DNA from: Candidatus Omnitrophota bacterium
Lineage (GTDB): Bacteria > Omnitrophota > Gorgyraeia > VGKN01
Length of the DNA: 64,000 nucleotides
Assembly: GCA_043800345.1 (NCBI GenBank)
Contig: JAZDNB010000030.1
Location: forward strand, 91-64,090
Reading direction: 5' to 3'
Shown: piece by piece, positions 1-62,400 of the stretch
Layout: each line of letters opens with the position of its first letter
How positions within the stretch are numbered: the stretch's first letter is position 1
Made by a program: the position numbers and the translations under genes
The notes under the pieces: model-generated
The model's database searches: none
What the model saw: the letters and a program-made list of their open reading frames with translations, nothing else
What the model was told of the DNA's origin: nothing

Positions 1-2572
1 GGACAATGACCTTGCTTGTGCCCGTGGCAACGAGCGCGTCTTGTGCAGGGGCGTAGTCGAAGTCAAGGTAGGGGTCACGATTAACAATCATGACATCATC
101 ACGAGAATCAACCGGAATAATTCTTTCAACTTCTTCTTCGCCTCCAAGCTCAATACGGTGTCCTTTTGCAGCCAATTCTTCGGTCACTCCTGCATACCTT
201 TGCTGGTTGGCGATTAAATCGTAATCTGTCTTACCTGCCACCGGATTACCTGCTCTATCAAGCACGGTTTGATCTGTTCCTTTATAAGGCAAAAATACAT
301 CTTCTCTTTCTGCAAGCTGTATATCCACTACCGGGTCCGGCAGTCCTTCTCTGGCTAAAAGACCTAGTCCGTTTACAATAAAATCCTGGACCATCTGTTC
401 GGTTATAAATCCTGTCACCTGAGACGTCCCATCTTCGTTTGGAACTTCTTTAGAAGGTAATCGGCTAGCAGGAACTTCTTTGGCCTTGGAGAGAATCTCA
501 GTAGACCATATCTGGGGATTTATTGCTTTAAGTTTATCGACAAGAGCGGGGTCATTTTCGTCTAAACCAAATATCCTTGCAACAAAAAGACGCATGTCTA
601 CTGCATAAAAAGCAACATTAAAAGCAACCCGTTTGTTCCCAAAAATATCTTCAATAAATAACCCTTTTTCTTCGCATAGTCTATAAAAATCAGAACCGGC
701 TTCTTTTGAAATATCAATACCTTTAAAACCTTTTTCCTTGCTCCGCATAGGAAATTCGCTTATTTCGCGGAGTTCTATTTGCGTATATGTCTGACCTGTT
801 TGTTTATTGCGATAGGTTACCCGTACGCCTATACCACCCTTTCTGTCTCCTGCCGATGGAGTGCAGATAGCAATAGTAGCCAAGGGCTTACGTTCCTGGC
901 GCGCTTTTAAAATCCTTCCTACCATACCTGCTCTCGGAAAATTCAATACGTTATCGCCGTTACCTGCACATACCACGGCATCCGTATGTTCCAGCATATC
1001 AATCATCAAATCCTTATCCATCAATACGGCTAAGAATGCCCATAAATGATTTTCTGCACACGTAGCCACATGTCCATCGGAAAAACGTAGAGGATAACCT
1101 GTTTTTGGATCCAATACCAATCCGGCTCTTTGCATCGCAGGATATATCTGGTGAGTATCCATCTCTTGCTGGTACTGCTGAGCTAAAGATTCGCGTATGC
1201 TTCTATCGCTTTCACCTTCAATAGTCCCGCCGACGCTCGTCACTAACACTACTTCGGACCGGGGATTTTGGCCAAAGATAAATCCTATTCTTGCCTGTAC
1301 TATGCTTATCCATTTTTGCATTCTTCTTCCTGCTCTATTGGTAATGACCTTCAGCGCCTTGTGCACAAGTTTATGCATACCTATAAGTTTTTTTACCGTG
1401 GTAGCCGCACCACCGCAGAAAGGCACTGACACAACCCTCGCATCTCTTATCGCCTCATCGCCCAACCCGACCTCTTCGGAAGTTGGTTCTGTGGGAATAT
1501 AATCCAGATCTTTATCTCCTAAGGCCTCAACTTGTGCAACCTCCCAATTTTGAGGGTCATTAAAAGGAATTCTTGTCGGTTCAACGGGTAGCTCAAAAAG
1601 CGTCCTCGTACGAGAAGCCGGCTTAGCCTCAGCCGTTTGAACAGCTGCTGCCCTTGCCTCTTCCTGTCTTTGCCTGCTTAAGTCCTGCCATTTTAACCAA
1701 TCACAACCTACGTATATAAAATAAAGATAATCGGCCAGACCTATAATAAGTTCCTGTTGCTGCGGATATATGTTATCTTTTATAACTCTATTTAACACAT
1801 CCTGGACAACATAATAGTCTTGCCAGCTACCGTTCATTCCTAATATAGCGAGGTTGTGAAGCAATTCATATAAAGGTGCTTCTATTTTTTCCAAACCATA
1901 TACTCTTTGAGCATATGCCCTTGCACCATCTACAGCTTGCTGGCTAACCCTTGCGGGTAAGAAATCTGCCTGCTGAATACGGTTGGCAGGAAACAGATCG
2001 ACGGGTTTGGTCCTTTGCGGCTCATCAACCGGAAGGGCAAAACTAACATTTGCAGGAGCAATATTTTCGAGACGTAATCCAAAAAATTCAATGAAGGCTA
2101 TATTGCCCAAGGGATTTATCGTAGAAATATCCACGGTCTGTAGATGATCCCGTATAATATACGTAGCATTCCCTATTCGCAGGCATGAGTTGCTTCCATA
2201 GGGTAACATCTCAATAACAAGATGCTGGCCGGCTGTATTAGTAAGCGTAACTCTATTATCAGCGGCTGTTACACTAGTTACCTTAGGTCCAAGATTTCCC
2301 AATACTATTGTTGCATTTCCTATTGATATAGTATCAGCTGTCCTAGCCTTTGCAATATCATCCAGGGCATCCAGCCCCGGAGCTTTCCTTCCCGCCTTTT
2401 TAGACAAACCATTGGTTAGCATCGGCGGGGCAAGTTTTGATATCGCTAAATCTGATTGGGATGAAGAAAAGTCGGGATAACTAAATAAAACGGTGGAAAT
2501 AACAAAAAAAATAACTGTAAAAATTGTTAATGCCCTTATTATATTCTTTCGACTAAAGATAAGGAGATGCAT
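1..2572 (-). CDS. Partial CDS (C-terminus beyond window edge): N-terminally membrane-anchored protein with UDPGP-family (UTP--sugar-1-phosphate uridylyltransferase-like) motifs
   Basis: Missing from the ORF track because it has no in-window stop. Manual minus-strand translation from ATG 2572-2570 (MHLLIFSRKNIIRALTIFTVIFFVISTVLF...) stays open for 857 codons to position 1. The ATG overlaps the upstream stop (TAATG). Ordered motifs FCGGAATT, AGNGDNVLN, AGDRKGGIG and FNVAFYAV resemble the GGxGT / NxDN / DxKGG / FNTN blocks of UDPGP enzymes (recalled, not searched). Confidence 0.5.
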   Translation of the reverse strand, partial: MHLLIFSRKNIIRALTIFTVIFFVISTVLFSYPDFSSSQSDLAISKLAPPMLTNGLSKKAGRKAPGLDALDDIAKARTADTISIGNATIVLGNLGPKVTSVTAADNRVTLTNTAGQHLVIEMLPYGSNSCLRIGNATYIIRDHLQTVDISTINPLGNIAFIEFFGLRLENIAPANVSFALPVDEPQRTKPVDLFPANRIQQADFLPARVSQQAVDGARAYAQRVYGLEKIEAPLYELLHNLAILGMNGSWQDYYVVQDVLNRVIKDNIYPQQQELIIGLADYLYFIYVGCDWLKWQDLSRQRQEEARAAAVQTAEAKPASRTRTLFELPVEPTRIPFNDPQNWEVAQVEALGDKDLDYIPTEPTSEEVGLGDEAIRDARVVSVPFCGGAATTVKKLIGMHKLVHKALKVITNRAGRRMQKWISIVQARIGFIFGQNPRSEVVLVTSVGGTIEGESDRSIRESLAQQYQQEMDTHQIYPAMQRAGLVLDPKTGYPLRFSDGHVATCAENHLWAFLAVLMDKDLMIDMLEHTDAVVCAGNGDNVLNFPRAGMVGRILKARQERKPLATIAICTPSAGDRKGGIGVRVTYRNKQTGQTYTQIELREISEFPMRSKEKGFKGIDISKEAGSDFYRLCEEKGLFIEDIFGNKRVAFNVAFYAVDMRLFVARIFGLDENDPALVDKLKAINPQIWSTEILSKAKEVPASRLPSKEVPNEDGTSQVTGFITEQMVQDFIVNGLGLLAREGLPDPVVDIQLAEREDVFLPYKGTDQTVLDRAGNPVAGKTDYDLIANQQRYAGVTEELAAKGHRIELGGEEEVERIIPVDSRDDVMIVNRDPYLDFDYAPAQDALVATGTSKVIV

Positions 2573-6860: not shown

Positions 6861-6978
6861 GATGAAGCTCCACGGCTTAACAGCCGTGGTTTCTTGCTTT
6901 TTGGTCTCGTGCCATATGGCACAGGCTCATGGAACGGAATCCCGCCCGTCCCGCAAAGCGGGACTGGGTGCGGGATAA
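6861..6978 (+). repeat. 118-bp three-hairpin repeat, copy 1
   Basis: ATGAAGCTCCACGGCTTAACAGCCGTGG...ATCCCGCCCGTCCCGCAAAGCGGGACTGGGTGCGGGATAAA. Lies in the rodZ/rimO intergenic gap and is near-identical to the copies at 26837, 41778, 48242 and 50056. Confidence 0.95.
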
Positions 6979-7006
6979 ATGTGGGAAAGGCTGCCTACGG
7001 TATAAC

Positions 7007-7739: not shown

Positions 7740-9962
7740 TTATTCTTCTTTATCTCTTTGTTCTATCTCTTCGATGTTACTAACCAGAATTTCACGCGGC
7801 TTGCTTCCCCTAAAAGGCCCAATAATACCTTCTTCTTCCATAAGATCTATGAGCCTGGCCGCCCTCGTATAACCAAGTCTTAGGCGCCGTTGGAGAATAG
7901 AGATCGAGGCCTGGCCCGTTTCTATTACCAGCTTGGCCGCCTCTTCAAAAAGTTCGTCCTTAGGCTGGTCTTTGAGAGAATAGGCCTTGCTCTGTTCTTT
8001 TAAAATTTCTTCGTCATATACGGCCTCTCGCTGTGCTTTAATAAAATTAACTATTTTTTCCAACTCCTTATCGGAGATAAGGCAACCCTGGGCTCTTACA
8101 GGCTTAGCCTGTCCCGGTTTTAAAAATAACATATCTCCCCTTCCTAAAAGCTTATCTGCCCCATTCATATCAAGGACCGTTCGTGAATCTACTTTTGATG
8201 CAACTTTAAACGATATCCTCGCAGGAAAGTTTGCCTTGATTACTCCCGTGACGACATCAACTGACGGCCGTTGCGTCGCCAGGATAATATGGATTCCCAC
8301 GGCCCTTGAGAGCTGGGCAAGCCTCGTTATGGCTTCTTCGATATCACGCGACGCAACAAGCATAAGATCGGCAAGCTCATCTATAATAACAATTATATAA
8401 GGAAGTACCGACCATGTAATTTCCCCTTCTTCCTTATTTTCCTCATCTTTTGATGTTTTTACTTTTTCATTATAGATAGCTATATTGCGCACACCGAGTT
8501 TTGCAAATAATTTATATCTTTCCTCCATCTCGTTAACCAGCCATGCAAGCGCTCCGGATACCTTTTTGGCATCTGTCACCACAGGGCAAAGCAAGTGGGG
8601 CAGGCCGTTAAACATGGCAAGCTCCACCATTTTGGGGTCAATCATTAAAAATTTAACCTCGTCGGGTGTGGCATTGAATAATATGCTTGTAATAATACTG
8701 TTGACGCATACGGTCTTACCGGAACCTGTGGTGCCGGCTATTAAAAGGTGCGGCATTTCTATTAAATCGGCTATAACCGTTTGTCCCTGGACATCCATGC
8801 CAAGTGCCATCTGTAATTTGCTGGGCGATGCCATAAAGTCCTGTCCGCTTAAGACTTCCTTTAAATATACCAGCGTGGTAACGGTATTTGGCACCTCCAC
8901 GCCGACTCGTGATTTTCCGGGGATAGGGGCAACGATTCTCACGCTCATTGCCTTCATCGTAAGTGCTATATCATCGTTCAGATTTGCAATCCGTTGAACC
9001 TTAACCCCGGGGGCAGGCTCAAGTTCATACATAGTAATGACTGGTCCCCTTTCTATATTTACCACTTTGGCTTCTATACCAAAATCCCCCAATGTCTCCT
9101 CTAACACTTTTGCACTATTCTGAAGATCCTCTTGTATTTTCCTCTCCTCCATAGGAGGCGGAGAATTAAGCAAATCCAAAGCCGGAAGCTTATAGTCTCC
9201 CGTATCGGTCCTTACTGAAACAACCTTTTTTGCTGCTACCGGTTCTTTTTTCTTAAACATTTCCTTTTTAATAATAACCGCCGGTTTTATTTTAAGCCTT
9301 TCTTCCTCATTGAATGGTTTTTCTTCCTTTTCTTCTTTTTTCTTTCCTATTCTAGGTCTCTCTTCTGTTGTAAATATACTTTTTTCTCTCGTCTTTTCTT
9401 CTCTTTTGGCTCTTCCTACCAGGTGCATAATCATCTCCCGAAGAATCTTCAATAATCTGTTTACATAAGGCAGAATAATAAATTCTGTGGATATCAGGAC
9501 AGAAAGCACTATAAAGGTAACAGTTAATATATACGCGCCGGTACCGCCAAAATACTTAAGTAAAATATTCGAAACAAAAAACCCCATATAACCTCCTGCA
9601 TCGAAACGCCGGATGGGATGTTGAAAAAACAAAAGGCTTAAAAACCCCGAGGTAAAACTTACAAAAACAACTGTCCCGATAAGTTTGATATATAACTTTT
9701 GCAATTCAGTCTGAAAAAATCTGCTTAGCGACCAGATAAGGCAAAGTACCGGTATAATAAAAGCTGCTTTCCCAAAGAGGAAAAATACACCGCCTGCAAT
9801 ATATGCCCCAAAGATCCCGATAAAGTTTTTGGCAGGTCTATTGGGGTGAGAGATATACAAGGAGAGATCATTAGGCGTATAGGATATAAAGCTCAGGAAA
9901 AGGAGCACTGAGAGTACAAACAATATTATTGCATAAATCTGTTGCAGATGTTCTTCTTTCAT
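7740..9962 (-). CDS. ftsK: DNA translocase FtsK
   Basis: 740 aa with N-terminal TM helices, a K/E-rich linker, Walker A GTTGSGKTV, the IIDELADLM motif and a C-terminal gamma domain (ISILQRRLRLGYTRAARLID). Confidence 0.95.
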   Translation of the reverse strand: MKEEHLQQIYAIILFVLSVLLFLSFISYTPNDLSLYISHPNRPAKNFIGIFGAYIAGGVFFLFGKAAFIIPVLCLIWSLSRFFQTELQKLYIKLIGTVVFVSFTSGFLSLLFFQHPIRRFDAGGYMGFFVSNILLKYFGGTGAYILTVTFIVLSVLISTEFIILPYVNRLLKILREMIMHLVGRAKREEKTREKSIFTTEERPRIGKKKEEKEEKPFNEEERLKIKPAVIIKKEMFKKKEPVAAKKVVSVRTDTGDYKLPALDLLNSPPPMEERKIQEDLQNSAKVLEETLGDFGIEAKVVNIERGPVITMYELEPAPGVKVQRIANLNDDIALTMKAMSVRIVAPIPGKSRVGVEVPNTVTTLVYLKEVLSGQDFMASPSKLQMALGMDVQGQTVIADLIEMPHLLIAGTTGSGKTVCVNSIITSILFNATPDEVKFLMIDPKMVELAMFNGLPHLLCPVVTDAKKVSGALAWLVNEMEERYKLFAKLGVRNIAIYNEKVKTSKDEENKEEGEITWSVLPYIIVIIDELADLMLVASRDIEEAITRLAQLSRAVGIHIILATQRPSVDVVTGVIKANFPARISFKVASKVDSRTVLDMNGADKLLGRGDMLFLKPGQAKPVRAQGCLISDKELEKIVNFIKAQREAVYDEEILKEQSKAYSLKDQPKDELFEEAAKLVIETGQASISILQRRLRLGYTRAARLIDLMEEEGIIGPFRGSKPREILVSNIEEIEQRDKEE

Positions 9963-21483: not shown

Positions 21484-24400
21484 CTATACCGCTTTTTTAA
21501 TCGCCTCTCTTAATATCCGAATAGTTTCTTTGGGCGTCAATCCTGCTTTATTGTTCAACACATAACTTCCAGATACAAAAATATTAGCTCCTTTTTTAAC
21601 CGAAGGTCCAATTGTAGTATCATCTATCCCACCTTGAATCATAATCTCTTTTGCATATCCTCTTTTTCTAAGTAAATCCACCTTATCGAAAACGCTGACA
21701 TCTGTTTTACCACCTACCTCAGCTGTTGCAACAGCAGTAACTACTACGATATCTACTTCTTTTAAAATTTCATCTGGAATATCTTTCACCTGTTCGTCCG
21801 ATTCAATTACTAATCCAGCTTTTACGTTGACTGACTCTGTATATTTAAGAGTTTTTACATATTGGATTGCCCCTAAAAGACCTTGTGTATCACTACCAAA
21901 AGAATCAAATTGAATATCAATGCTACTAACTACACCAGTTTCAGCAAATGCTTTTAAATATTCATTAGAAGGTTTCAAATATAACAAATGAACATCAAAC
22001 GGTATTTCAGCGCCTCTTTCTTTCATCTTGCTTATAAGTGCTGGTGTAAACTGTTCAGTGTTATCAGGATAATCGATATTGGCGTTAGATCTTCCGGTAT
22101 TCTCAAAATAATTCTTATCTCGCACATCAAAATGAACACCATCTGCCTCTGCTTGAAATATTTCCATTGTACTTCCAATCAATACTTCATCATCTACTTT
22201 CTTTAATACAGAAAGAGGGACATAAATCTCAAACTTTCTATCCGTCTGTACGGATTCTGACATCACACCTACAGTATCTGGTGGCTGAGCGGTTGGCTGT
22301 GTGGCGGTTTTTGCTTGTGGCTCAGGTACTATAACAGGAAAATCTTTTCTTGAACAAATTAAAAACACTCCTTCGGTAAATTTAGGAGAACACGGATAGT
22401 CGGAAGGTAAAGATTCAAACCTCTTAACCTCGAAACCTTTTTTTTCCAGATCACTCATGATACTTTTATCCAAACCATCAACAACATCTCCGTCTTCAAT
22501 GGTAATAAAAAGAATGCCATCTGGTTTTAAAATCCTTACTGCTTGAGGAATTAATACCCATGTTTTTGTGATATTGTTAATAGTAACGATGTCATAAGAA
22601 GAATCTACTATTCCAATCTTTTCATAATCACCGGCTTCGGGAGCAGCCCATATTACATTATTTCCATTACTTCGCGCCTGGTCGGTAAGGAATTTTAGAG
22701 TCTCTAATCCAACAATAGATACATTATCAAACAATTTTCTTAAAAGCATCCCGAAGCTTCCGACAAATTCACCTGTCCCCGTATCTAAATCAACTGCACA
22801 AATACTATTTCTATCTTTAAATCTTGCTCTTATAATCTCTTCTGTTGTAGAAGTTACTGAAGTCAAAAATCGGTCAACGTCATTAGTATCCGTAGGTTGA
22901 TTTGCGGCTGGGGTCCCTGGTCCGAAGGAGGTTCCACTTCGCAAACTAGGAGCATATCTAATTATAATGTTATATTTATTCATATCGGGCATTCTTGGGG
23001 CATCAAAAATTAAGCTTGCATTTTTACCCATATGTAAAGATATAACATCCAACGGCCATGGATTTTCAAAGGTATCGCTCCAACGCAACCCTCTTACATC
23101 CATAAGCTGTTCTACCCACGCTTCACCTTTTAAAATAACGACTTGGTTTCCCGCTCTTTTAAGAGCATCCCCAAATCTCAAACCCTCTTCGGAGGAAAAT
23201 TCAAGACCCGAGGTCGTGAATGTATCGGTCGTAATTATAAGTTGGCCTGATGAAAGATATGTGCCCAAACCTCTATACTGCTTCATGATTTCTAGTTGTA
23301 CAAGTTGTGCATCATATCTCTCAATAAGGTCATTAACCTCGTCACTTAGCACGTCTTTTACCATATAAGGTCTGTCTTTCGCATATATAGTTACTTCTTT
23401 ACCCATACACAATAAAGCATGAATCAGGATAAAATCACTAAATACCTCGCCAGAATTATCCGTGCATATTGCGATTCGCTTGGTTGCCGGATCCATCAGC
23501 CTATCCAAAATTTGCCTTCTATGGTCGATTAAATAGAATAATTTTGCCCTTGCAGCTTCATCTAATTGACCACGGAACTGATCAATAGCATTTCCAAGGG
23601 CTGAAATCTCTATTGCCATCGACAGCCTATCTCTTTCGTCTGGGATGCCAAAAACCTTCTTTAAATTCTGTACTATATCTTTGACATCTCTTTCATTCTC
23701 TTCTTGTTTTACATGATAGAATGGGTCAAGATAAGGATTTATCCCAATAATATTTTGATAATCTTCTTCGCTTTCTCTCCTTACTTCCTCAAGGCAATCT
23801 TTATAGATTCCGTTTAATTTAGTAAACAACACATGCCAAGCATAACTTTTTATATACGGCTTGAATATATCCTTTTTGGAAATGATTTCGCTTTCAACGC
23901 GTGCCTTAACTCTGTCTAAAAGTTTGGCCTTAATCCCATCATTTATAGGTAACCCCTGTATACCTGCATAAAATTTAGAAAGGTTTGAATCTGGATGGGT
24001 TGCATCTAGCCAACGCCCAATGCCACCATCCCAAATCTCCCCCATAGCTACTTGACCCCTAGAAGCAAATCCTAATGATTTTCCCTTTGTGAATTTTAAT
24101 TCATCAACAACGTTTTCTTTTGAAACTGATTCAACGATTCTTTGTTTTTTATGAACTACTAATAAAACTTCAAGACCGTTTCTTCTACAACCATCAGCCT
24201 CAATAATTGTTTCAGTCCCTATTTGCATGAATGTATCTTTCCCGTTAGCCCATAGAAAAATATCTTGCGCGCCTTGTTGTATGAGCGCATTGGCCAGATC
24301 TAAAAGAGTGGCGCCTTTAAAGTGTGTTATGCCCGTGACGGCAGATGTTATAATCTTTCCGTCTCTTGTCACGCCAAAACAGGTATGGGGGTGTATACCC

Positions 24401-25584
24401 GGTAAAAATACTACGGTAACAGTATCTGTTGTTGTATCAATAATATATTCGCCTCCCTTAAGCAACGGAATATCTTTCTCCTCTGTCACATTTTTGTAGC
24501 CCCATTTAGTAAAAACCAATTCCCTTTCTTCATCAGAAATACCTTTTATTCTTAGGGGAGACAGACTAAGTGTTACGGGTTTATCCTGCAGAGCCTGTCT
24601 TATTTTTTCTTTGTCATTATACAATTCGCCCACCCCATCGCTAAAACCAAGATGAAACTGGTCAGTGCCGCGCTGAAACATGGGGAAACGGAATAAATGC
24701 CTTAGATCATCGAACTGTTCATATAGGGCTTCGATATTAAGCTTTCCATTTTTTACTATACGTTGTCCATACACGCCGCATTTGATCTTATTTGAAATAT
24801 CAAGATCTTGTTCGTCAAAAATTCCTTGTTCGCCTTTGGAATTAAAAAATTTAACAGTCATCGCCAAAACCCTGCCATCATCCTGTGTAACCAGCATATC
24901 ATAATTTCTTCCAAGGAGAGGTTCATTAGAGATGTGATAAACTATACTGTTATTAATAGCAATAAACCACTCATTAAAACCTAAATTGCCGTTCGGTAAA
25001 ACCGCCAAAATTTCATAATCTGGATGTTCTGCTTTATATTGAGCGACAAGGGAATCAACATCTATGCGCATAGCGCTAACTTGGGAAATTTTTGCAAAGG
25101 GTATCTCCGTCCCGTCTAATATTATCTTGTTGCGAACTCGGTCAAAAAAGAATCTGCTTTCTCCCTGTAGATCAAACGCTCCTCCTTCAACCACCAGCGC
25201 TATTTCTACGTTCGTATCATCAAATGTTTTTACGATTGGCTTTTGGGATTCAAATTGTAATCTCGCGTTCTTTAGAGCCGCCTCTTCGGAAGGTTTTTGC
25301 TTTAGAGATTTTGTTTTTAATTTATTCAGTTTAAGCGGGGGGGATAAAAAGTAAGGAATCCTCTTTGTATGAATACACAGAGAAAAGTCATTTTTAACGG
25401 GCAGGGTTGATTCGGGAAAAGTCTTACTTTTGGCAAAAGAGGGGTCTTTGTCAAAGAGAGAGTAATATAAAACTACGACCAACTGCATGGCGAGAACTAA
25501 AATTAACTTTAGAATAGGTAAATAGTGGGGTGACCGAGAGATTTTCATAATAGTATCTCTTACTGTAAAAAGTTTTTTTATCAA
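21484..25584 (-). CDS. 1366-aa membrane-anchored multidomain fusion: NAGPA-like (phosphodiester glycosidase-like) + DUF89/ARMT1-like phosphatase + class I SAM methyltransferase + ribulose-phosphate-3-epimerase-like TIM barrel
   Basis: N-terminal TM helix (LPILKLILVLAMQLVVVLYY). NAGPA-like block CFGVTRDGKIITSAVTG...GATLLDLANALIQQGAQ at ~24175-24895. DUF89 core ICTDNSGEVFSDFILIHALLCMGKEVTIYAKDRPYMVKDV ... ILKGEAWVE at ~23020-24000. MTase motif I VDLDTGTGEF and ILKPDGILFI at ~22440-22870. RPE-like end IMIQGGIDDTT...GANIFVSGSYV at 21487-22240. The track start is TTG 25584; the alternative is ATG 25548. Confidence 0.6.
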   Translation of the reverse strand: MIKKLFTVRDTIMKISRSPHYLPILKLILVLAMQLVVVLYYSLFDKDPSFAKSKTFPESTLPVKNDFSLCIHTKRIPYFLSPPLKLNKLKTKSLKQKPSEEAALKNARLQFESQKPIVKTFDDTNVEIALVVEGGAFDLQGESRFFFDRVRNKIILDGTEIPFAKISQVSAMRIDVDSLVAQYKAEHPDYEILAVLPNGNLGFNEWFIAINNSIVYHISNEPLLGRNYDMLVTQDDGRVLAMTVKFFNSKGEQGIFDEQDLDISNKIKCGVYGQRIVKNGKLNIEALYEQFDDLRHLFRFPMFQRGTDQFHLGFSDGVGELYNDKEKIRQALQDKPVTLSLSPLRIKGISDEERELVFTKWGYKNVTEEKDIPLLKGGEYIIDTTTDTVTVVFLPGIHPHTCFGVTRDGKIITSAVTGITHFKGATLLDLANALIQQGAQDIFLWANGKDTFMQIGTETIIEADGCRRNGLEVLLVVHKKQRIVESVSKENVVDELKFTKGKSLGFASRGQVAMGEIWDGGIGRWLDATHPDSNLSKFYAGIQGLPINDGIKAKLLDRVKARVESEIISKKDIFKPYIKSYAWHVLFTKLNGIYKDCLEEVRRESEEDYQNIIGINPYLDPFYHVKQEENERDVKDIVQNLKKVFGIPDERDRLSMAIEISALGNAIDQFRGQLDEAARAKLFYLIDHRRQILDRLMDPATKRIAICTDNSGEVFSDFILIHALLCMGKEVTIYAKDRPYMVKDVLSDEVNDLIERYDAQLVQLEIMKQYRGLGTYLSSGQLIITTDTFTTSGLEFSSEEGLRFGDALKRAGNQVVILKGEAWVEQLMDVRGLRWSDTFENPWPLDVISLHMGKNASLIFDAPRMPDMNKYNIIIRYAPSLRSGTSFGPGTPAANQPTDTNDVDRFLTSVTSTTEEIIRARFKDRNSICAVDLDTGTGEFVGSFGMLLRKLFDNVSIVGLETLKFLTDQARSNGNNVIWAAPEAGDYEKIGIVDSSYDIVTINNITKTWVLIPQAVRILKPDGILFITIEDGDVVDGLDKSIMSDLEKKGFEVKRFESLPSDYPCSPKFTEGVFLICSRKDFPVIVPEPQAKTATQPTAQPPDTVGVMSESVQTDRKFEIYVPLSVLKKVDDEVLIGSTMEIFQAEADGVHFDVRDKNYFENTGRSNANIDYPDNTEQFTPALISKMKERGAEIPFDVHLLYLKPSNEYLKAFAETGVVSSIDIQFDSFGSDTQGLLGAIQYVKTLKYTESVNVKAGLVIESDEQVKDIPDEILKEVDIVVVTAVATAEVGGKTDVSVFDKVDLLRKRGYAKEIMIQGGIDDTTIGPSVKKGANIFVSGSYVLNNKAGLTPKETIRILREAIKKAV

Positions 25585-25646: not shown

Positions 25647-26804
25647 TTAATTTAGGAGGAGGATTTTTGCATAGGTGACGGTAGAATCGCCGAAGCGTTC
25701 ATTTATTGAATCAACGGCACGGTTAAGGAGAATATTTTTTTTATCACATTCAAAAAGTAACCCCTGCTGAGGATTTACTATTAAACCAGAAAGGCCAACC
25801 CCTAAAAGCCTCACGGGAGCCTTTAGTTTTATATAAGAAAATAAATAAAGAACGTTTTTATAAATAGACTCGGTGGAGTACATGTAATCAGATAAAGTTT
25901 TTTGTCTGGAAAATGTGCTTAAATCTTTATAGCGTATGGTAAGTTGTATAACTTGCGCCGAAAGGTTATCTTTTCTTAATCTCGTTCCCACCATTTCAGA
26001 TAACATCAAAAGATACCCCGATATAACTTCTTGAGAGTATACATCTTTCGAAACCGTTATACTGTGCCCTATGGATTTCTGTGTTAAACCATCACTGCTT
26101 GAAACAACCGAATCATCTTCCCCTCTGCACACATTGTATAGCCAGTTCCCTAGTATGCCGAAATATCTTACCAGTAAATCGTTGGGTAACCCCATGAGTT
26201 GGCCACAGGTATATATGCCGAGTCCGTTTAACCGTTGCTTAGTCTTAAGACCGATACCCGCAATCTTCTCTACGGGCAGATTATGTAAAATAAGCGGCGC
26301 ATTTTCTTTTTTTATTATTAAAAGACCGTCGGGTTTTGATAATTTTGATGCGAGTTTTGCAAGCATCTTGTTTGGCGCAATACCGATGGAGGCAGTAATA
26401 TCGAAAGACTGTTTTATTGTTTCTTTTATGCGATGGGATATTTCTTTTATAAAAATTACATCACTACCGCTTACGTCAAGATAGAACTCATCAATAGAAG
26501 ATTGTTCCAGCTTTTCACTATAAGACTTTAATAACTCCGATATGCAATGTGAGGTATGTAAATATTTTGCGGTATCGGCAGGGATAAATATTGCCTTCGG
26601 ACAAAGTTTATACGCCATCCATGAGGACATACCGGATTCGATACCGAATTTTTTTGCTTCGTAAGATGCCGAACATACCACGGTCCTCTGCCTATCAGGC
26701 CTTCCCCCTACAATTACCGGTTTACCTTTAAATCGAGGATTAACCGCCTGTTCTATGGAAGCAAAAAAAGCATCCATATCTAAATGTAATATGAAATTGT
26801 TCAT
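25647..26804 (-). CDS. dinB: DNA polymerase IV (Y-family)
   Basis: 385 aa containing ILHLDMDAFFASIEQAVNPRFKGKPVIVGG...SIDEFYLDV. Confidence 0.9.
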   Translation of the reverse strand: MNNFILHLDMDAFFASIEQAVNPRFKGKPVIVGGRPDRQRTVVCSASYEAKKFGIESGMSSWMAYKLCPKAIFIPADTAKYLHTSHCISELLKSYSEKLEQSSIDEFYLDVSGSDVIFIKEISHRIKETIKQSFDITASIGIAPNKMLAKLASKLSKPDGLLIIKKENAPLILHNLPVEKIAGIGLKTKQRLNGLGIYTCGQLMGLPNDLLVRYFGILGNWLYNVCRGEDDSVVSSSDGLTQKSIGHSITVSKDVYSQEVISGYLLMLSEMVGTRLRKDNLSAQVIQLTIRYKDLSTFSRQKTLSDYMYSTESIYKNVLYLFSYIKLKAPVRLLGVGLSGLIVNPQQGLLFECDKKNILLNRAVDSINERFGDSTVTYAKILLLN

Positions 26805-26836
26805 AGCGTAGGGATAAGATTCCGACGGATAATTCT

Positions 26837-26954
26837 ATGAAGCTCCACGGCTTAACAGCCGTGGTTTCTTGCTTTTCGGTCTCGTGCCATATGGTACAGG
26901 CTCATGGAGCGGAATCCCGCCCGTCCCGTAAAGCGGGACTGGGTGCGGGATAAA
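26837..26954 (+). repeat. 118-bp three-hairpin repeat, copy 2
   Basis: Full-length copy between orf94 and dinB. Differs from the consensus by C59T and C93T, both in stems and both leaving G-T pairs. Confidence 0.95.
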
Positions 26955-27018
26955 TAACGCCTATTTCACAAAAACAGGACACTTGCAATAAAAAAGAAAC
27001 TCGTGAGTACATATAACA

Positions 27019-27303
27019 TTATTCTACCCATACTTCCTCCATATACCATGTTAATTCCCTGTCAGAAAAATATATCTGATAAATGGTGCCTCCTATATCA
27101 ACAGAAAAATAATGCCTCATGCTATCTCCGACCCTATCTTTCCAGCGATACGTAAGATGCTCTATCTTATGAAGAGTCCCCTTCCATTTAAACCAGACTG
27201 GTTTTGGGCCCTTATCAAATACAACACCCACGCTTATAGGTTCATTAAGCCTACCGCTACTGGCGGGTAATTTTCTATCCCACCTGGAGTTTTTGTTAAA
27301 CAT
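27019..27303 (-). CDS. Hypothetical 94-aa protein encoded between lexA and dinB
   Basis: The ORF overlaps the lexA stop by 8 nt. It is Trp/Tyr-rich (VWFKWKGTLHKIEHLTYRWKDRVGDSMRHYFSV...YQIYFSDRELTWYMEEVWVE) and I recognise no family. Confidence 0.6.
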   Translation of the reverse strand: MFNKNSRWDRKLPASSGRLNEPISVGVVFDKGPKPVWFKWKGTLHKIEHLTYRWKDRVGDSMRHYFSVDIGGTIYQIYFSDRELTWYMEEVWVE

Positions 27304-27892
27304 ATTTCCTCACAGAAGATATTACTTTTCCAATTATGGCACAATCCTTATTTGCATAAATAGTTTTATAATCCTTATTGGCGGGCTCAAGCTTTATTCT
27401 CTCTTTTTCTTTATAAAAATACTTGATGGTTACCTCATTGTCTATAACCGCTACCACTATATCTCTGTCATGTGCTATGGGATTTTTCTTTACTAACACA
27501 AGGTCTCCTTCCAATATGCCCGCATCCTTCATACTGTCCCCTTTAACGCGCAGTGCAAATATATCATCGGATACAGAAAATTCCTTGAAATCCATATAGC
27601 CCTCTACATCCTCATGCGCAGGATGAGGCGCTCCTGCTCTGACCCTTCCCAATATCGGGATTGCAAATAGGTTGGCGTTGATTATTTCAAGGCCCCGGGC
27701 TATGTTAGGGGTGTGGCGCAGGAACCCTTTCCCCTGCAGACTACGGATATAATCTCGTACGGTACCCGTAGACTTAAATCCAAAACGGCCTGCTATTTCT
27801 CTTATAGTAGGAGATGAGCCCTGGTTTTTTATCCTTTCATAAATAAATCTAAACACCTTCTCCTGTTTTTTAGTAAGAACATTTTTCATCAT
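27296..27892 (-). CDS. lexA: LexA repressor (S24 peptidase)
   Basis: 198 aa with an N-terminal winged HTH (QGSSPTIREIAGRFGFKSTGTVRDYIRSL), the cleavage region VRAGAPH and GDSMKDAGILEGDLVLV...K. Confidence 0.9.
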   Translation of the reverse strand: MMKNVLTKKQEKVFRFIYERIKNQGSSPTIREIAGRFGFKSTGTVRDYIRSLQGKGFLRHTPNIARGLEIINANLFAIPILGRVRAGAPHPAHEDVEGYMDFKEFSVSDDIFALRVKGDSMKDAGILEGDLVLVKKNPIAHDRDIVVAVIDNEVTIKYFYKEKERIKLEPANKDYKTIYANKDCAIIGKVISSVRKYV

Positions 27893-27898
27893 ATTTCA

Positions 27899-27927
27899 TA
27901 TATACCACACATTTGTGTGGATGTCAA
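27899..27927 (-). promoter_or_regulatory. lexA promoter (consensus -35, 17-nt spacer, -10) positioned for a leaderless mRNA
   Basis: The minus strand reads TTGACA-T-CCACACAAATGTGTGG-TATATA-TGAAAT-ATG. Only 6 nt separate the -10 from the start codon, and there is no SD. Confidence 0.65.
27905..27920. promoter_or_regulatory. Candidate LexA operator (SOS box): perfect inverted repeat CCACACA-N2-TGTGTGG
   Basis: A 7-bp perfect inverted repeat fills the -35/-10 spacer of the lexA promoter. Confidence 0.5.
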
Positions 27928-27969
27928 ATAAATTTTTAATAATAAATTTAGTTTTACCTTCTATAGTAT

Positions 27970-27998
27970 TTGACAAATGCCTTCTGACTATCTATAAT
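27970..27998 (+). promoter_or_regulatory. Consensus sigma70 promoter positioned for a leaderless mRNA of the 28006 gene
   Basis: TTGACA (27970-27975), a 17-nt spacer, TATAAT (27993-27998), then 7 nt to ATG 28006. No SD. Confidence 0.65.
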
Positions 27999-28005
27999 AT
28001 GCCGC

Positions 28006-28545
28006 ATGAATATTGAAGAAAAATGGCAAGAAGCTCTAAAAAGTACCGAGATATTGCGGTCAAGGTTTATGAGACTGCATACCTTTAACACCACCGAACT
28101 CCCTTATATCTTCTTAGCAGAATCCACCATAAACCAAGGAGATACCGTCGTAAGAAAAGGCAGCATATCGGTTGACAAACCCCTGATTATGCTTCCTAAA
28201 GACTTTCCCATATTTGAAGGTTTCGATTTTAAAGAGGACCTTCATTTAGATGAGGACATCGTAAGGTCATTTTTTCTCGTGAGGGGGGTACGGTTTCCCT
28301 CTCTTAAATATCAAAATCTCACTTTTAATCTTGATGTATACGAAGGCTCGCTTAAAGAAGCAATAAAATTCTATGGAGAAATTTTAAAAAGAGGGGAAGA
28401 TATAACCTCTGGCCTTATTATAGGAAATGAAGAAAGTTGGCAGTTTTCTATTTTGATCTATATAGCTTTCATGTTTTCAAAATCTGCCGATGAGGATATG
28501 CGAAGGCTATTTGAAAAGTTTAAGAGAGATCTCGGATTCAGTTAA
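28006..28545 (+). CDS. Hypothetical protein (179 aa), divergent from lexA
   Basis: ORF with a consensus promoter directly upstream. No recognised motif. Confidence 0.6.
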   Translation: MNIEEKWQEALKSTEILRSRFMRLHTFNTTELPYIFLAESTINQGDTVVRKGSISVDKPLIMLPKDFPIFEGFDFKEDLHLDEDIVRSFFLVRGVRFPSLKYQNLTFNLDVYEGSLKEAIKFYGEILKRGEDITSGLIIGNEESWQFSILIYIAFMFSKSADEDMRRLFEKFKRDLGFS

Positions 28546-33319: not shown

Positions 33320-35847
<2,528 letters not shown>

Positions 35848-41777: not shown

Positions 41778-41945
41778 ATGAAGCTCCACGGCTTAATGGT
41801 TCGACTCCGCTCACCATCCTTCGAACCATCCTGAGCTTGTCGAAGGACAGCCGTGATTTCTAACTTTTCGGTCCGTGCCATATGGCACAGGCTCATGGAG
41901 CGGAATCCCGCCCGTCCCGTAAAGCGGGACTGGGTGCGGGATAAA
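41778..41945 (+). repeat. 118-bp three-hairpin repeat, copy 3 (with a 51-nt nested insertion and a 1-nt deletion)
   Basis: Same termini as the other copies. An insertion at 41797-41847 sits inside the loop of hairpin 1, and consensus T46 is deleted. Confidence 0.9.
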
Positions 41946-48241: not shown

Positions 48242-48359
48242 ATGAAGCTCCACGGCTTAACAGCCGTGGTTTTTGACTTTTCGGTCTCGTGCCATATGGC
48301 ACAGGCTCATGGAGCGGAATCCCGCCCGTCCCGCAAAGCGGGACTGGGTGCGGGACAAA
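48242..48359 (+). repeat. 118-bp three-hairpin repeat, copy 4
   Basis: Full-length copy. The linker is variant (TTTTTGAC) and the element ends GGGACAAA instead of GGGATAAA. Confidence 0.95.
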
Positions 48360-49988: not shown

Positions 49989-50055
49989 TTAGGGCTCGTA
50001 CTAAATATCCGTGATACCTGATTATCTAAATACCTATGAGCGCTTTATTAAATCT

Positions 50056-50173
50056 ATGAAGCTCCACGGCTTAACAGCCGTGGTTTCTTGCTTTTCGGTC
50101 TCGTGCCATATGGCACAGGCTCATGGAGCGGAATCCCGCTCGTCCCGCAAAGCGGGACTGGGTGCGGGATAAA
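50056..50173 (+). repeat. 118-bp three-hairpin repeat, copy 5
   Basis: Full-length copy between the smc stop and the pilin-like gene start. Carries a single stem change, C85T. Confidence 0.95.
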
Positions 50174-50224
50174 TAAAATGTATGAAGTAGCCGGATAAAA
50201 AGATACTGACACATATGCCATATA

Positions 50225-59414: not shown

Positions 59415-62400
59415 TTACTGGTTCCCGGCCGCATCCTCTGCGTGCGGTTTTAAAGATTCGTTTTCTACCTTTTTTATGTTTTCTTTTATCAAGGTAACGA
59501 GCGCATCGTTCGGATATTCCTGAAGTAATGCATTATATTCCCTTAGCGAACCGGTATAATCTTTTTTCAGAAAATAGAGGTCCGCTATATATATTTTCAG
59601 TTTGATAATAGCGGCATGTTTCGGGTAGGTATCAATAAGTAATTTGATTTTATGCATTGCGCTATCAACGCCACTGCTTAATGCATTCATATAATATACT
59701 CTTGCTAGTTCCGCATATGCCTTATTTGACCATTCATCGGAAAGACCCAAGTTCAACAAAACTTCGTATTCCTTGCTGCTTTCTTCAAAACGTGCTTCCG
59801 CTTCAAAGGTTTTTGCTATTTTAAAATGGGCATAATTGGCAAGGGTATTTCCCTTGGGAATATATAATAATAGTTTTTGATAAAAGGCCCTGGCAAATTG
59901 CCATTTGTTATTAACATAAAATTTATCGGCAATTTCTTTTAATTTCGCGTATGCATCTGCGGCCGGACGTTTCTGCAGGTCAATATCAAAATAAAGCTCA
60001 TAAAGACCGGATGATTTTCCGTAGTCGCCTATTTTAAATTCTTTTTCCGCTTCTGTAAATAGCATATCTAATTCGCGTACGGCTGCCTCGCCCGTAGACA
60101 CCCTTATGAATTCTTCTTTTAACTTCAAGGCATAATCTTCAAGTCCGAAATTCTTTAACGTAAAACAAAACTCATTTAATTTTGCGCTATTTATGGAAGG
60201 ATCATCCGAATAATCCGATAATCCGGCAATAAGCTCTTTTAAAGATTCATGAAGTTTACTAGATGTAAAATTCCTAATATCTATGAGCACCTTGATAAAT
60301 ATCAGATTAGTTTTTAATTTTGTATTTATATCTTCCCCCAAAAGCCGGTTTATAGCTTCCCCTGCCTCCTGATAATAGCCGGGTTTGTTTTTCAAAAATT
60401 CCCTAAACGAATCAAGCGAGGCATGCTTTCTTAGATGCTCAATTTCATTTACATAGGTATAGGCAAGCAGATACCTGAGAAATTTTGTATTTTGATTTTC
60501 TTTTTCATCCGACAGGTATTTCTTAAGGCCAGTAATAAAAATATGGAATTCCGATTCTTCTTTATCCAGGTCCCATATCCTGCTAAAAATCGCAAGTAGT
60601 TTTTCTTCGGACTCTGCCTTTTTTATTTCTTTTAAAAATCCCGCGGAATCAAATACGGGATGCAATGAAGAGATTGTCTCAATATTTTTAAAACCTGATA
60701 ACTTAAAGGCACGCTTGATATAGGAATTTTTCATAACGTTATTCCACACAAATGACGTCCTTGCATTTTCAATCATAATAAGCGCTATCCCTAAATCAAG
60801 ACCATAATAAATACCGGGGCACCAGTTTATATCCGCATTTAACGCATTTTTAATTCCGTATCTACCCCACAGGTCGGGATAGGTATATATCAGATAGCGG
60901 AGCGAATCAAGCGAAAGAAAGGGCGTAAAGGGCATTGAACCGGCAGGTGCAACGGGAGAAATAGTGCCGTCAAAGATAGGCTTTTTTGAACCGCAGGGAG
61001 CAGCCCCATGATGCATCGTATATTCATCAAGCAACCGCATCGAACTAATACCCCAGCTATAAGGCCCGAATGTTTTATACCGGTTTGAATTGTCAATACA
61101 AAAATTGCGGTTTGCTAAAGTAGCGCTTATAGAATTCTGCCACCAATCTATGCCTTCCTTATCAACCATTCCCTTGAAATCAAAAAAGCCATGAGCATAC
61201 TGATACGTAAAGAGTGAACCGTACCAGGAAATTACAAAAGGTTCTCCCTTGGCATAAGCCGCCTTTTCCCTTTTAAAAGAATAAAAAACCTCTGGACTAA
61301 CCGCATGAACGGGAGAACCGATGGCTAGCAAAGATATAATCATGGCTTCATCCGTATAATAATCCCACCAGGAATCTAAAAACTTACCATCGGGAAACCA
61401 TCCCAGGTAAAAATGATTGCTATGATTCTTTGAGGCCGTATCCAAAAACTTATCCCACATAATAGATTCATATAATGCAGAGGCTTTTTTCTTGACTTCT
61501 CCGCCGAAATACTCCCCCGAGCACAGTGCACCGCTTATAAGTATTGCCGTATCGATGGTGGATATCTCACAACCTCCGGTTCTTTTGGCAGTCTCAATAT
61601 CAAGAAAATGGCAAAAACCGTTTTTTCCTTCCGCTACAACCTTGGCTTTATTCTTGGGGTCGGTTAAAAAAGTATCTATGGCCCTATACGCCCTCTGATA
61701 TGCCGTTTTTTTGTCAATCCATCCGTGTTCTGCTCCTATAGCTAACGCAACAAGACCGAATCCCGTAGTCGCTATGCTCGAATACGTATCGACGTTATTA
61801 TCTAAAAATAGTCCCGTGGCTAGGGACTGGCTATCTTTAAAAAAATTAAATGCCTTTTCTTCAATACGTAACAAAAATTCATCATCGCTTAAGGTTTTAA
61901 CATGAAACGGCCCACATACAGCTGTGGGCGATTCCTTGCCGTTTATATATGTCGCAATACTCCGTATATAATAGGGATGCTCGGGACTAAGGGGAAACGT
62001 ATCGAAATCAGCCTCATAATATGTATCGAATGTATCATAATCAAATCCTATAATTTTCCACGTCACAGCATCTGTACTGTATTCAAACCTCACGGATTCA
62101 ATGGCAGGATTAGTAACAACAGATTCTGCTTCTATCGATAGCGCAATCGTACCGTTTAAAAAATCTGTTTTTGTAATTTTATTTTTATTTATCCTGAAGG
62201 TCTCGGCGTCGGGGCTGTTTGTCCGGATTATTTTTTCTTTCGATAAATACACGGGGGCCGTATAGCCGAATATCAATTCGTCGATATATATCGTGCCTAT
62301 TTTATCCCGCTGGTTAGAGTATTCGAATAAAAACCCAAGTTCCAGCACTTTTGAAAAATCCCGAATTTCTTTAAACGCCAATAAAGGAATAGTTACTTTT

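Follow-up and report, generated by a model that had tools for sequence, protein, structure and literature searches.

The 16-bp dyad at positions 27905-27920 of a 64,000-nucleotide stretch of Candidatus Omnitrophota DNA (contig JAZDNB010000030.1; hereafter the window) is predicted to be the operator, or SOS box, of the LexA repressor encoded directly downstream of it, a reading to which we assign a probability of about 0.88. The box lies in the promoter of lexA, which is followed on the same strand by a small gene, orf94, and by dinB. We classify it as a LexA operator because five features come together: a position suited to autoregulation, dyad symmetry, conservation, further copies upstream of other genes, and covariation with the recognition helix of the protein. 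A first-pass annotation of the same DNA had proposed an autorepressing LexA operator at this place, and the position, the conservation, the helix covariation and the box at other genes all support that proposal.

The predicted operator and its promoter

Read on the minus strand, the region consists of a -35 hexamer TTGACA (27927-27922), a single T (27921), the box CCACACAAATGTGTGG (27920-27905; CCACACA-AA-TGTGTGG), a presumed -10 hexamer TATATA (27904-27899), the bases TGAAAT (27898-27893) and the ATG start codon of lexA (27892-27890). On re-reading, this layout was found exactly as first annotated, and the coordinates agree with the statement that the box occupies the 17-nt spacer between -35 and -10. 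Two other descriptions have to be adjusted. What had been called a perfect 16-bp inverted repeat is made of two 7-nt arms, and the two central bases between them, AA, do not pair with each other; and in the promoter that had been called near-consensus, the TATATA -10 lacks the usual T at the sixth position, which is why the lexA promoter was not listed by a consensus promoter scanner. It is the 17-nt spacing that points to TATATA as the -10 hexamer. The box ends in TGG (27907-27905), which provides the TGn of an extended -10, and an A/T-rich tract ahead of the -35 (27928-27950) may serve as an upstream promoter (UP) element. Since the A of the start codon (27892) stands 7 nt past the -10 and no Shine-Dalgarno sequence is present, the lexA mRNA is probably leaderless in the window, with transcription predicted to start at 27892.

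This geometry bears on the idea that the inverted repeat acts as an RNA hairpin, i.e. a terminator or attenuator in the lexA leader. The repeat as such would allow for it, but the box lies upstream of the predicted transcription start and would therefore not be transcribed from the lexA promoter, a 2-nt loop is too small, and no T-run follows the box, so that we regard a role in RNA as exceedingly improbable.

As a dyad with repeated arms, the box fits the 12-16 bp expected for a LexA dimer, with 1.5-2.0 bits of information at 14 positions. A weight matrix built from 84 sites at other loci, with the window left out, gave the window site 29.5 of a possible 30.0 bits. The second-best score in the window was 5.5 bits, below the mean maximum of shuffled sequence (6.5 bits), and fell at 61912 inside a 1164-aa open reading frame (ORF). 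A mismatch search was equally negative, in line with the earlier statement that the 64 kb hold no second copy, and ligA (33823-35847), ftsK (7740-9962) and smc in the window have no box. Perfect inverted repeats of the form 7-N2-7 are no rarity by themselves: the window contains nine where about 4.9 are expected. The significance of the box thus comes from its position and conservation and not from the palindrome, and the same excess is what speaks for reading the box as a palindrome that arose by chance in AT-rich intergenic DNA, an explanation that the comparison with relatives bears on directly.

Conservation upstream of lexA

In the closest relatives, i.e. Lake Tanganyika and other metagenome contigs with LexA proteins 67-72% identical to that of the window, the arrangement TTGACA, one or two bases, CCACACAAATGTGTGG and TA was kept to the base, while the leaders, 0 to 100 nt long, were unalignable. 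The comparison of lexA upstream regions that the first-pass annotation had suggested thus yielded a palindrome that is kept between flanks that have diverged. Over the whole range of LexA proteins with which the box was found, from 100% to about 42% identical to that of the window, it lay between the -35 and the -10. We also assembled 80 loci from Joint Genome Institute (JGI) metagenomes, selected by LexA protein patterns alone. When 567,615 bp of loci were searched for CCACAC-N4-GTGTGG with at most one mismatch, all 54 sites found (54/54) were upstream of lexA, against about 1.25 sites expected by chance according to our own estimate. With identical arms at dozens of lexA genes whose proteins are 42-53% identical and whose flanks cannot be aligned, and with 50 of the 122 exact matches listed below standing upstream of three gene families, we judge the chance explanation to be already refuted and leave it a negligible probability.

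A sequence logo of 83 non-redundant lexA promoters gave C-C-A-C-A-C-A-W-W-T-G-T-G-T-G-G, i.e. a family consensus of CCACACA-WW-TGTGTGG, with A at box position 7 in 77/83 and T at position 10 in 81/83. The box sits in the -35/-10 spacer in 80/83 of these relatives: a TTGACA-like -35 (at most one mismatch) ends 1 nt before it in 47/83 and 2 nt before it in 33/83. TA follows the box directly in all 83 promoters, the commonest form of the -10 being TATAnn, and a T-rich run ahead of the -35 is common (63/83 have T at positions -12 and -11). The first ATG comes 12-13 nt after the box, and thus 6-7 nt after the -10, in 34/83 lexA promoters (about 40%) and in 4/4 orf94 promoters, a layout which suggests that leaderless mRNAs are frequent in these lineages; other lexA promoters have AGGAGG leaders.

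Such a fixed arrangement could also be expected if the box were a promoter element, a spacer plus extended -10 that RNA polymerase or a sigma factor recognises, instead of a repressor site. In favour of this, the extended -10 takes its TG from the right arm, and lexA promoters always hold the box in the interval between the -35 and -10 hexamers. The left arm, however, is as conserved as the right one, and the strict symmetry of the two is not needed for promoter recognition; moreover, the perfect consensus promoter of the divergent gene only 50 bp away does without such a spacer. Together with the shift of the box along with the LexA helix and its different register in the dinB promoters of Verrucomicrobia, both described below, this makes a promoter element very improbable, and a repressor site for LexA remains our preferred reading.

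Box and recognition helix change together

The lexA gene (27296-27892, minus strand) encodes 198 aa with LexA_DNA_bind and Peptidase_S24 domains (PF01726, 60.6 bits against a cut-off of 23.7; PF00717, 111.8 bits against a cut-off of 23.3) and matches the NCBIfam lexA equivalog TIGR00498 with 182.4 bits against a cut-off of 110.95. A database entry of the identical protein is annotated as transcriptional repressor LexA, and all named close homologues are from Omnitrophota/Omnitrophica. The protein is alignable with the LexA structures of E. coli and Thermotoga. Residues A86-G87, S120 and K157 do not vary among 35 relatives, and the stretches that hold them align opposite AGEP, GMSM and VTVKR of E. 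coli LexA, whose cleavage and catalytic residues we take to be A84-G85, S119 and K156. The recognition helix of the window protein reads S41-T-G-T-V-R-D-Y48. Its S41, G43, T44, R46 and D47 stand opposite S39, N41, A42, E44 and E45 of E. coli LexA, presumably the base-contacting residues of helix 3 (PDB 3JSO), and it is plausible from this alignment that the changed residues go with an altered DNA specificity.

Within the protein-selected set, CCACAC-N4-GTGTGG (at most one mismatch, within 220 nt upstream of lexA) accompanied 46 of the 52 distinct LexA proteins whose helix is the canonical STGT[VA]RD[YH] and 1 of the 27 with another helix; Fisher's test gives p = 4e-14, a value that overstates the independence of the sequences because they are phylogenetically related. 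When all loci are taken together, the box stands upstream of lexA for 80 of 89 distinct proteins with the canonical helix. Four deviating helices come with deviating boxes: STGSPRVH with G(C/T)ACAC..GTGTGC (loci L013 and L014), STGSVRDH with CCGCAC..GTGCGG (L061), KSIKTVQDH with CTATAC..GTATGG (L053), and STNGVRSIL with CT(T/G)CAC-TTTT-GTGCAG (L073-L086, rumen contigs, LexA about 40% identical). On the other side, a metagenome-assembled genome (MAG) labelled Elusimicrobia has the helix LATVRDH and a perfect box between TTGACA and TATACT, and a Verrucomicrobia-labelled MAG (L173) has the helix STGTARDH and a perfect box upstream of lexA. The variant of the box thus follows the variant of the LexA helix, both in the four variants and in the counts of 46/52 against 1/27. 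We infer that LexA is very probably what reads the box, because the box tracks lexA, tracks the recognition helix, and changes to a matching form where the helix is changed.

Box sites upstream of other genes

A scan for the exact 16-mer in one genome per species (185,579 species) returned at least 120 loci with at least 122 sites and is biased towards perfect sites. Genes were placed around the sites by tblastn with the window proteins, a site being counted when it lay within 200 bp upstream. Among the matches listed, about half of the loci belong to Omnitrophota or to MAGs labelled Planctomycetes, Verrucomicrobia or Elusimicrobia. The gene downstream was lexA at 34, dinB at 12 and orf94 at 4 of the 122 sites listed, so that these three families account for 50/122. 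Other listed matches came from unrelated taxa and had no promoter context, and in one MAG five copies at contig ends represent a repeat.

Several of these sites serve genes of the lexA-orf94-dinB group that are not preceded by lexA. In L110 and L126 (both Omnitrophota) and in L171 (a MAG labelled Deltaproteobacteria), the box immediately precedes orf94 and there is no lexA ahead of it; in L119 (Omnitrophota) and in L162, another locus of the MAG to which L171 belongs, it precedes dinB without adjacent lexA. L192 (Omnitrophota) has two boxes, one for orf94 and one for dinB. In nine Verrucomicrobia-labelled MAGs the box ends 1 nt before the ATG of dinB and TTGACA ends 14-15 nt upstream, a register different from that of the lexA promoters. 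These MAGs, mostly from peat and soil, are L099, L104, L106, L121, L143, L147, L155, L157 and L194, with L173 as the corresponding case for lexA. Where the box was found about 1 kb upstream of lexA, the intervening gene was a dinD, KilA-N or RhuM-family gene that is itself behind the box (dinD: NF008573, 355 bits against a cut-off of 242), and an NYN-domain gene in L126 also has a box upstream. The first-pass annotation had named absence of the motif from other DNA-damage genes as the observation that would speak against it; dinB, the orf94 family and dinD carry the box where they are not behind lexA, so such an absence is not what we see in the loci sampled.

The sites away from lexA raise the question of whether the box is the operator of another factor, either the orf94 protein itself or an unlinked regulator, that controls lexA and dinB together. 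Boxes before orf94 or dinB without an adjacent lexA would be expected in that case, and L171, with boxes on orf94 and dinB and none on a nearby LexA-like gene, also speaks for it. On the other hand, the box stays with lexA alone in L117, L149, L169 and L173, it covaries with the LexA recognition helix, the dinB promoters of Verrucomicrobia are boxed with no orf94 nearby, and the orf94 protein has no recognisable DNA-binding domain. LexA autoregulation through a dyad in its own promoter is moreover the norm according to PMC8565304. We therefore consider another factor improbable and retain LexA as the protein that acts on the box.

Some observations nevertheless weigh against a LexA operator. 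Six of the 52 canonical-helix lexA genes have no box within 220 nt; some of these have an intervening gene with the box further upstream (L036), and L029 and L060 are without explanation. The LexA-like gene of L171 (253-828, 38% identity, helix STGTTRGH) has no box, although orf94 and dinB of the same MAG have perfect boxes (at L171 7270 and L162 2530, MAG242); it seems to follow another gene, so that its box may lie further upstream, unless the MAG has another lexA at a different place. The DNA-damage functions behind the box are those of translesion synthesis (dinB and its small partner) plus, in some loci, a dinD ahead of lexA; beyond these, the box precedes genes that are small or of the kind found in mobile elements (KilA-N, RhuM, NYN). 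Neither recA nor an excision-repair gene was seen behind the box in the loci examined, where tblastn with an approximate E. coli RecA query found no recA gene in roughly 1.4 Mb and no search was aimed at uvrA, ruvAB or dnaE2. The breadth of the regulon is in any case only a sample, drawn with a single exact 16-mer.

Three further sets of sites are worth recording. In two Verrucomicrobia MAGs, a conserved 56-aa protein with a hydrophobic core (L136, 7193-7363, plus strand; L193, about 8-175, minus strand) is encoded directly behind a TTGACA-box-TA promoter. It follows the pattern MD.KLI.LAERFMELVTLALIV.VA.RNWNL..RVRRLE..., has no Pfam match and is a candidate for an SOS-induced small membrane protein, possibly a division inhibitor. 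Viral contigs contained ten exact box matches, of which eight or nine lay in longer hairpins or non-promoter contexts and look like chance. One site, L212 10024-10039 (IMGVR_UViG_3300005935_003368), has a promoter-like arrangement, TTGACG-TT-box-TATACT, ahead of ORFs of 60 aa and 136 aa, the latter resembling a small terminase subunit, and may represent a phage promoter under the control of the host LexA. Finally, the complete Omnitrophota genome of Candidatus Velamenicoccus archaeovorus LiM (NZ_CP019384, about 798.7 kb) holds a perfect box (L150 6763) in an orf94-type promoter. The start codon of orf94 is lost there (GGTACC for GGTATG) and only dinB fragments follow, so the orf94-dinB cassette appears to have decayed.

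The lexA-orf94-dinB group and its surroundings

Behind lexA, on the same minus strand, follow orf94 (27019-27303), encoding a small conserved protein that we regard, from matches of its family, as a divergent member of DUF6504, and dinB (25647-26804), which encodes the Y-family DNA polymerase IV (Pfam IMS and IMS_C) and is the last gene of the presumed operon. The gene order and strand of lexA-orf94-dinB are as first annotated, while co-transcription of dinB is presumed across a spacer of 214 nt. The orf94 product of the window has no Pfam or NCBIfam match of its own; in its family, 21 of 35 members match PF20114 (DUF6504), with a best E-value of 1.4e-5. Most Omnitrophota loci keep the gene in this intermediate place, and copies that are not linked to lexA have a box of their own. 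Its product may be an accessory factor of Pol IV, to judge from this context. The searchable literature yielded no mention of DUF6504.

The orf94-dinB spacer holds one copy of a repeat of about 120 bp that forms two GC-rich hairpins. Five copies of it, all in the same orientation and 95-98% identical, are present in the window (about 26834-26957, 50053-50176, 6862-6980, 48242-48355 and 41847-41945), and it looks like a miniature inverted-repeat transposable element (MITE) or a repetitive extragenic palindromic (REP) element. We weighed whether the hairpin between orf94 and dinB is a terminator that splits the operon: it is part of the repeat element, and its T-run and terminator face are on the plus strand, antisense to the operon.

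Downstream of dinB, an ORF of 1366 aa (21484-25584, minus strand) combines NAGPA, ARMT1-like damage-control phosphatase, methyltransferase and ribulose-phosphate 3-epimerase domains in an unusual fusion. On the other side of lexA, a divergent gene of 179 aa (27970-28545, plus strand) belongs to no Pfam or NCBIfam family and has a perfect TTGACA-17-TATAAT promoter (27970-27998), with the ATG 8 nt after the -10, which looks leaderless. We rejected this gene as a regulator or member of the unit, as it is kept only in the three closest loci (L001-L003) and has its own consensus promoter free of the box.

Proposed mechanism and significance

We infer that LexA binds the box, that repression works by occlusion and that its relief depends on RecA. 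A LexA dimer would bind both CACAC/GTGTG arms through its winged helix-turn-helix. Once bound, the repressor would cover the whole 17-nt spacer together with the extended -10 TG; RNA polymerase would thereby be excluded from the promoter, and lexA, orf94 and dinB would be repressed. Upon DNA damage, RecA filaments would trigger self-cleavage of LexA at A86-G87 by the catalytic S120 and K157, and the freed promoter would then allow synthesis of the translesion polymerase DinB, of the DUF6504-like protein that partners it and of fresh LexA, by which the system would be reset.

LexA is the textbook example of motif drift in a transcription factor, its binding site differing from phylum to phylum, and Omnitrophota are widespread, uncultured and often ultra-small bacteria. 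Searches of the literature for LexA or the SOS response in Omnitrophota and for the motif strings of the box returned nothing relevant, and as far as the searchable literature goes this is probably the first definition of an Omnitrophota LexA box. We lean, if only slightly, towards the fuller claim that CCACACA-N2-TGTGTGG is an undescribed LexA motif of Omnitrophota, common to MAGs labelled Verrucomicrobia, Planctomycetes and Elusimicrobia with a TVRD[YH]-type helix, that it governs a small, translesion-centred regulon (lexA, the DUF6504-family protein, dinB and sometimes dinD), that the operator is locked in the spacer of often leaderless promoters, and that by its sequence it stands between Fibrobacter-type and Gram-positive-type boxes.

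What is new is the sequence of the box; the type of switch is well known, the view of how LexA acts is unchanged, and the result is no surprise in principle. The motif nonetheless allows the SOS regulon of any Omnitrophota MAG to be predicted by a simple scan and provides a directly testable hypothesis of LexA binding. It also links DUF6504, a domain of unknown function, to Pol IV and the SOS response, and shows the same type of LexA in some Verrucomicrobia, a phylum for which a different motif has reportedly been published. Newly defined LexA motifs have served to reconstruct motif drift and to interpret the SOS regulons of further clades (PMC8565304, PMC7739468), and the Omnitrophota motif, if true, would add a node to the reconstruction of LexA motif evolution.

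Comparison with known LexA boxes

The first-pass annotation had called the sequence of the box unfamiliar, and it does match none of the LexA motifs listed in the introduction of PMC8565304, i.e. CTGT-N8-ACAG, TTAC-N3-GTAA, GGTT-N10-AACC, GTTC-N7-GTTC, GGA-N5-TCC and CTAA-N5-TTAG. That paper also describes minimal SOS-like networks that contain little beyond translesion polymerases, governed by HdiR in Streptococcaceae and by UmuDAb in Acinetobacter. Our sample resembles them in its targets, namely the repressor itself, a Y-family polymerase with its small partner, and dinD; in contrast to HdiR and UmuDAb, however, the repressor is a canonical LexA (TIGR00498) and not a LexA-like substitute.

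With the E. coli system the box shares a 16-bp dyad over the lexA and dinB promoters, and the Ala-Gly cleavage site and Ser/Lys dyad of the protein are kept. Sequence and half-site spacing are unrelated, as CCAC...GTGG stands at the positions of CTGT-N8-ACAG. Moreover, the promoter described here is probably leaderless and has its -35/-10 spacer filled exactly by the box, the sampled regulon is small and translesion-centred, and where the E. coli lexA promoter has two boxes, there is one here.

In Bacillus subtilis and Actinobacteria, LexA binds the Gram-positive Cheo box, GAAC-N4-GTTC. The two boxes agree in dyad geometry (4-N4-4), in the C and G that flank the spacer, in the repressor family and in autoregulation. 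The match ends there: with ACAC-AAAT-GTGT in place of the Cheo sequence, four of eight positions differ and only AC-N4-GT is common to both, and the arms described here are conserved to 7 nt.

A LexA-binding motif of Verrucomicrobia (Erill et al. 2016, Front Mol Biosci 3:33) is cited in both PMC8565304 and PMC7739468. Our case resembles it in coming from a lineage related to the Planctomycetes-Verrucomicrobia-Chlamydiae (PVC) group and in its source, as both motifs are drawn from genome comparisons of the promoters of lexA and of translesion polymerases. The Verrucomicrobia motif is said to be GTTC/GAAC-based, reportedly TGTTC-N4-GAACA, and our box is unrelated in sequence to the motif so described. 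Yet Verrucomicrobia-labelled MAGs carry the CCACAC box before dinB (nine loci) and before lexA (L173), so either the phylum contains two LexA types, or the published motif is not the one given here.

A further likeness is to Fibrobacter succinogenes, whose LexA box Mazon et al. (2004, Microbiology 150:3783) are said to have described as TGCNC-N4-GTGCA. Both boxes are palindromes with a 4-nt centre and a CAC-N4-GTG core in the lexA promoter. The box found here, CACAC-AAAT-GTGTG, does not match the Fibrobacter motif in its reported form, from which it differs by two mismatches per half-site, in the outer positions (CCA-CAC against TG-CNC). The Fibrobacter-like CT(T/G)CAC-TTTT-GTGCAG goes with the helix STNGVRSIL, whereas the box of Omnitrophota and allies goes with STGTVRDY. 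Since LexA homologues 39-41% identical to the window protein (L073-L086) carry the Fibrobacter-like form, the two box types stand on neighbouring branches of one LexA family.

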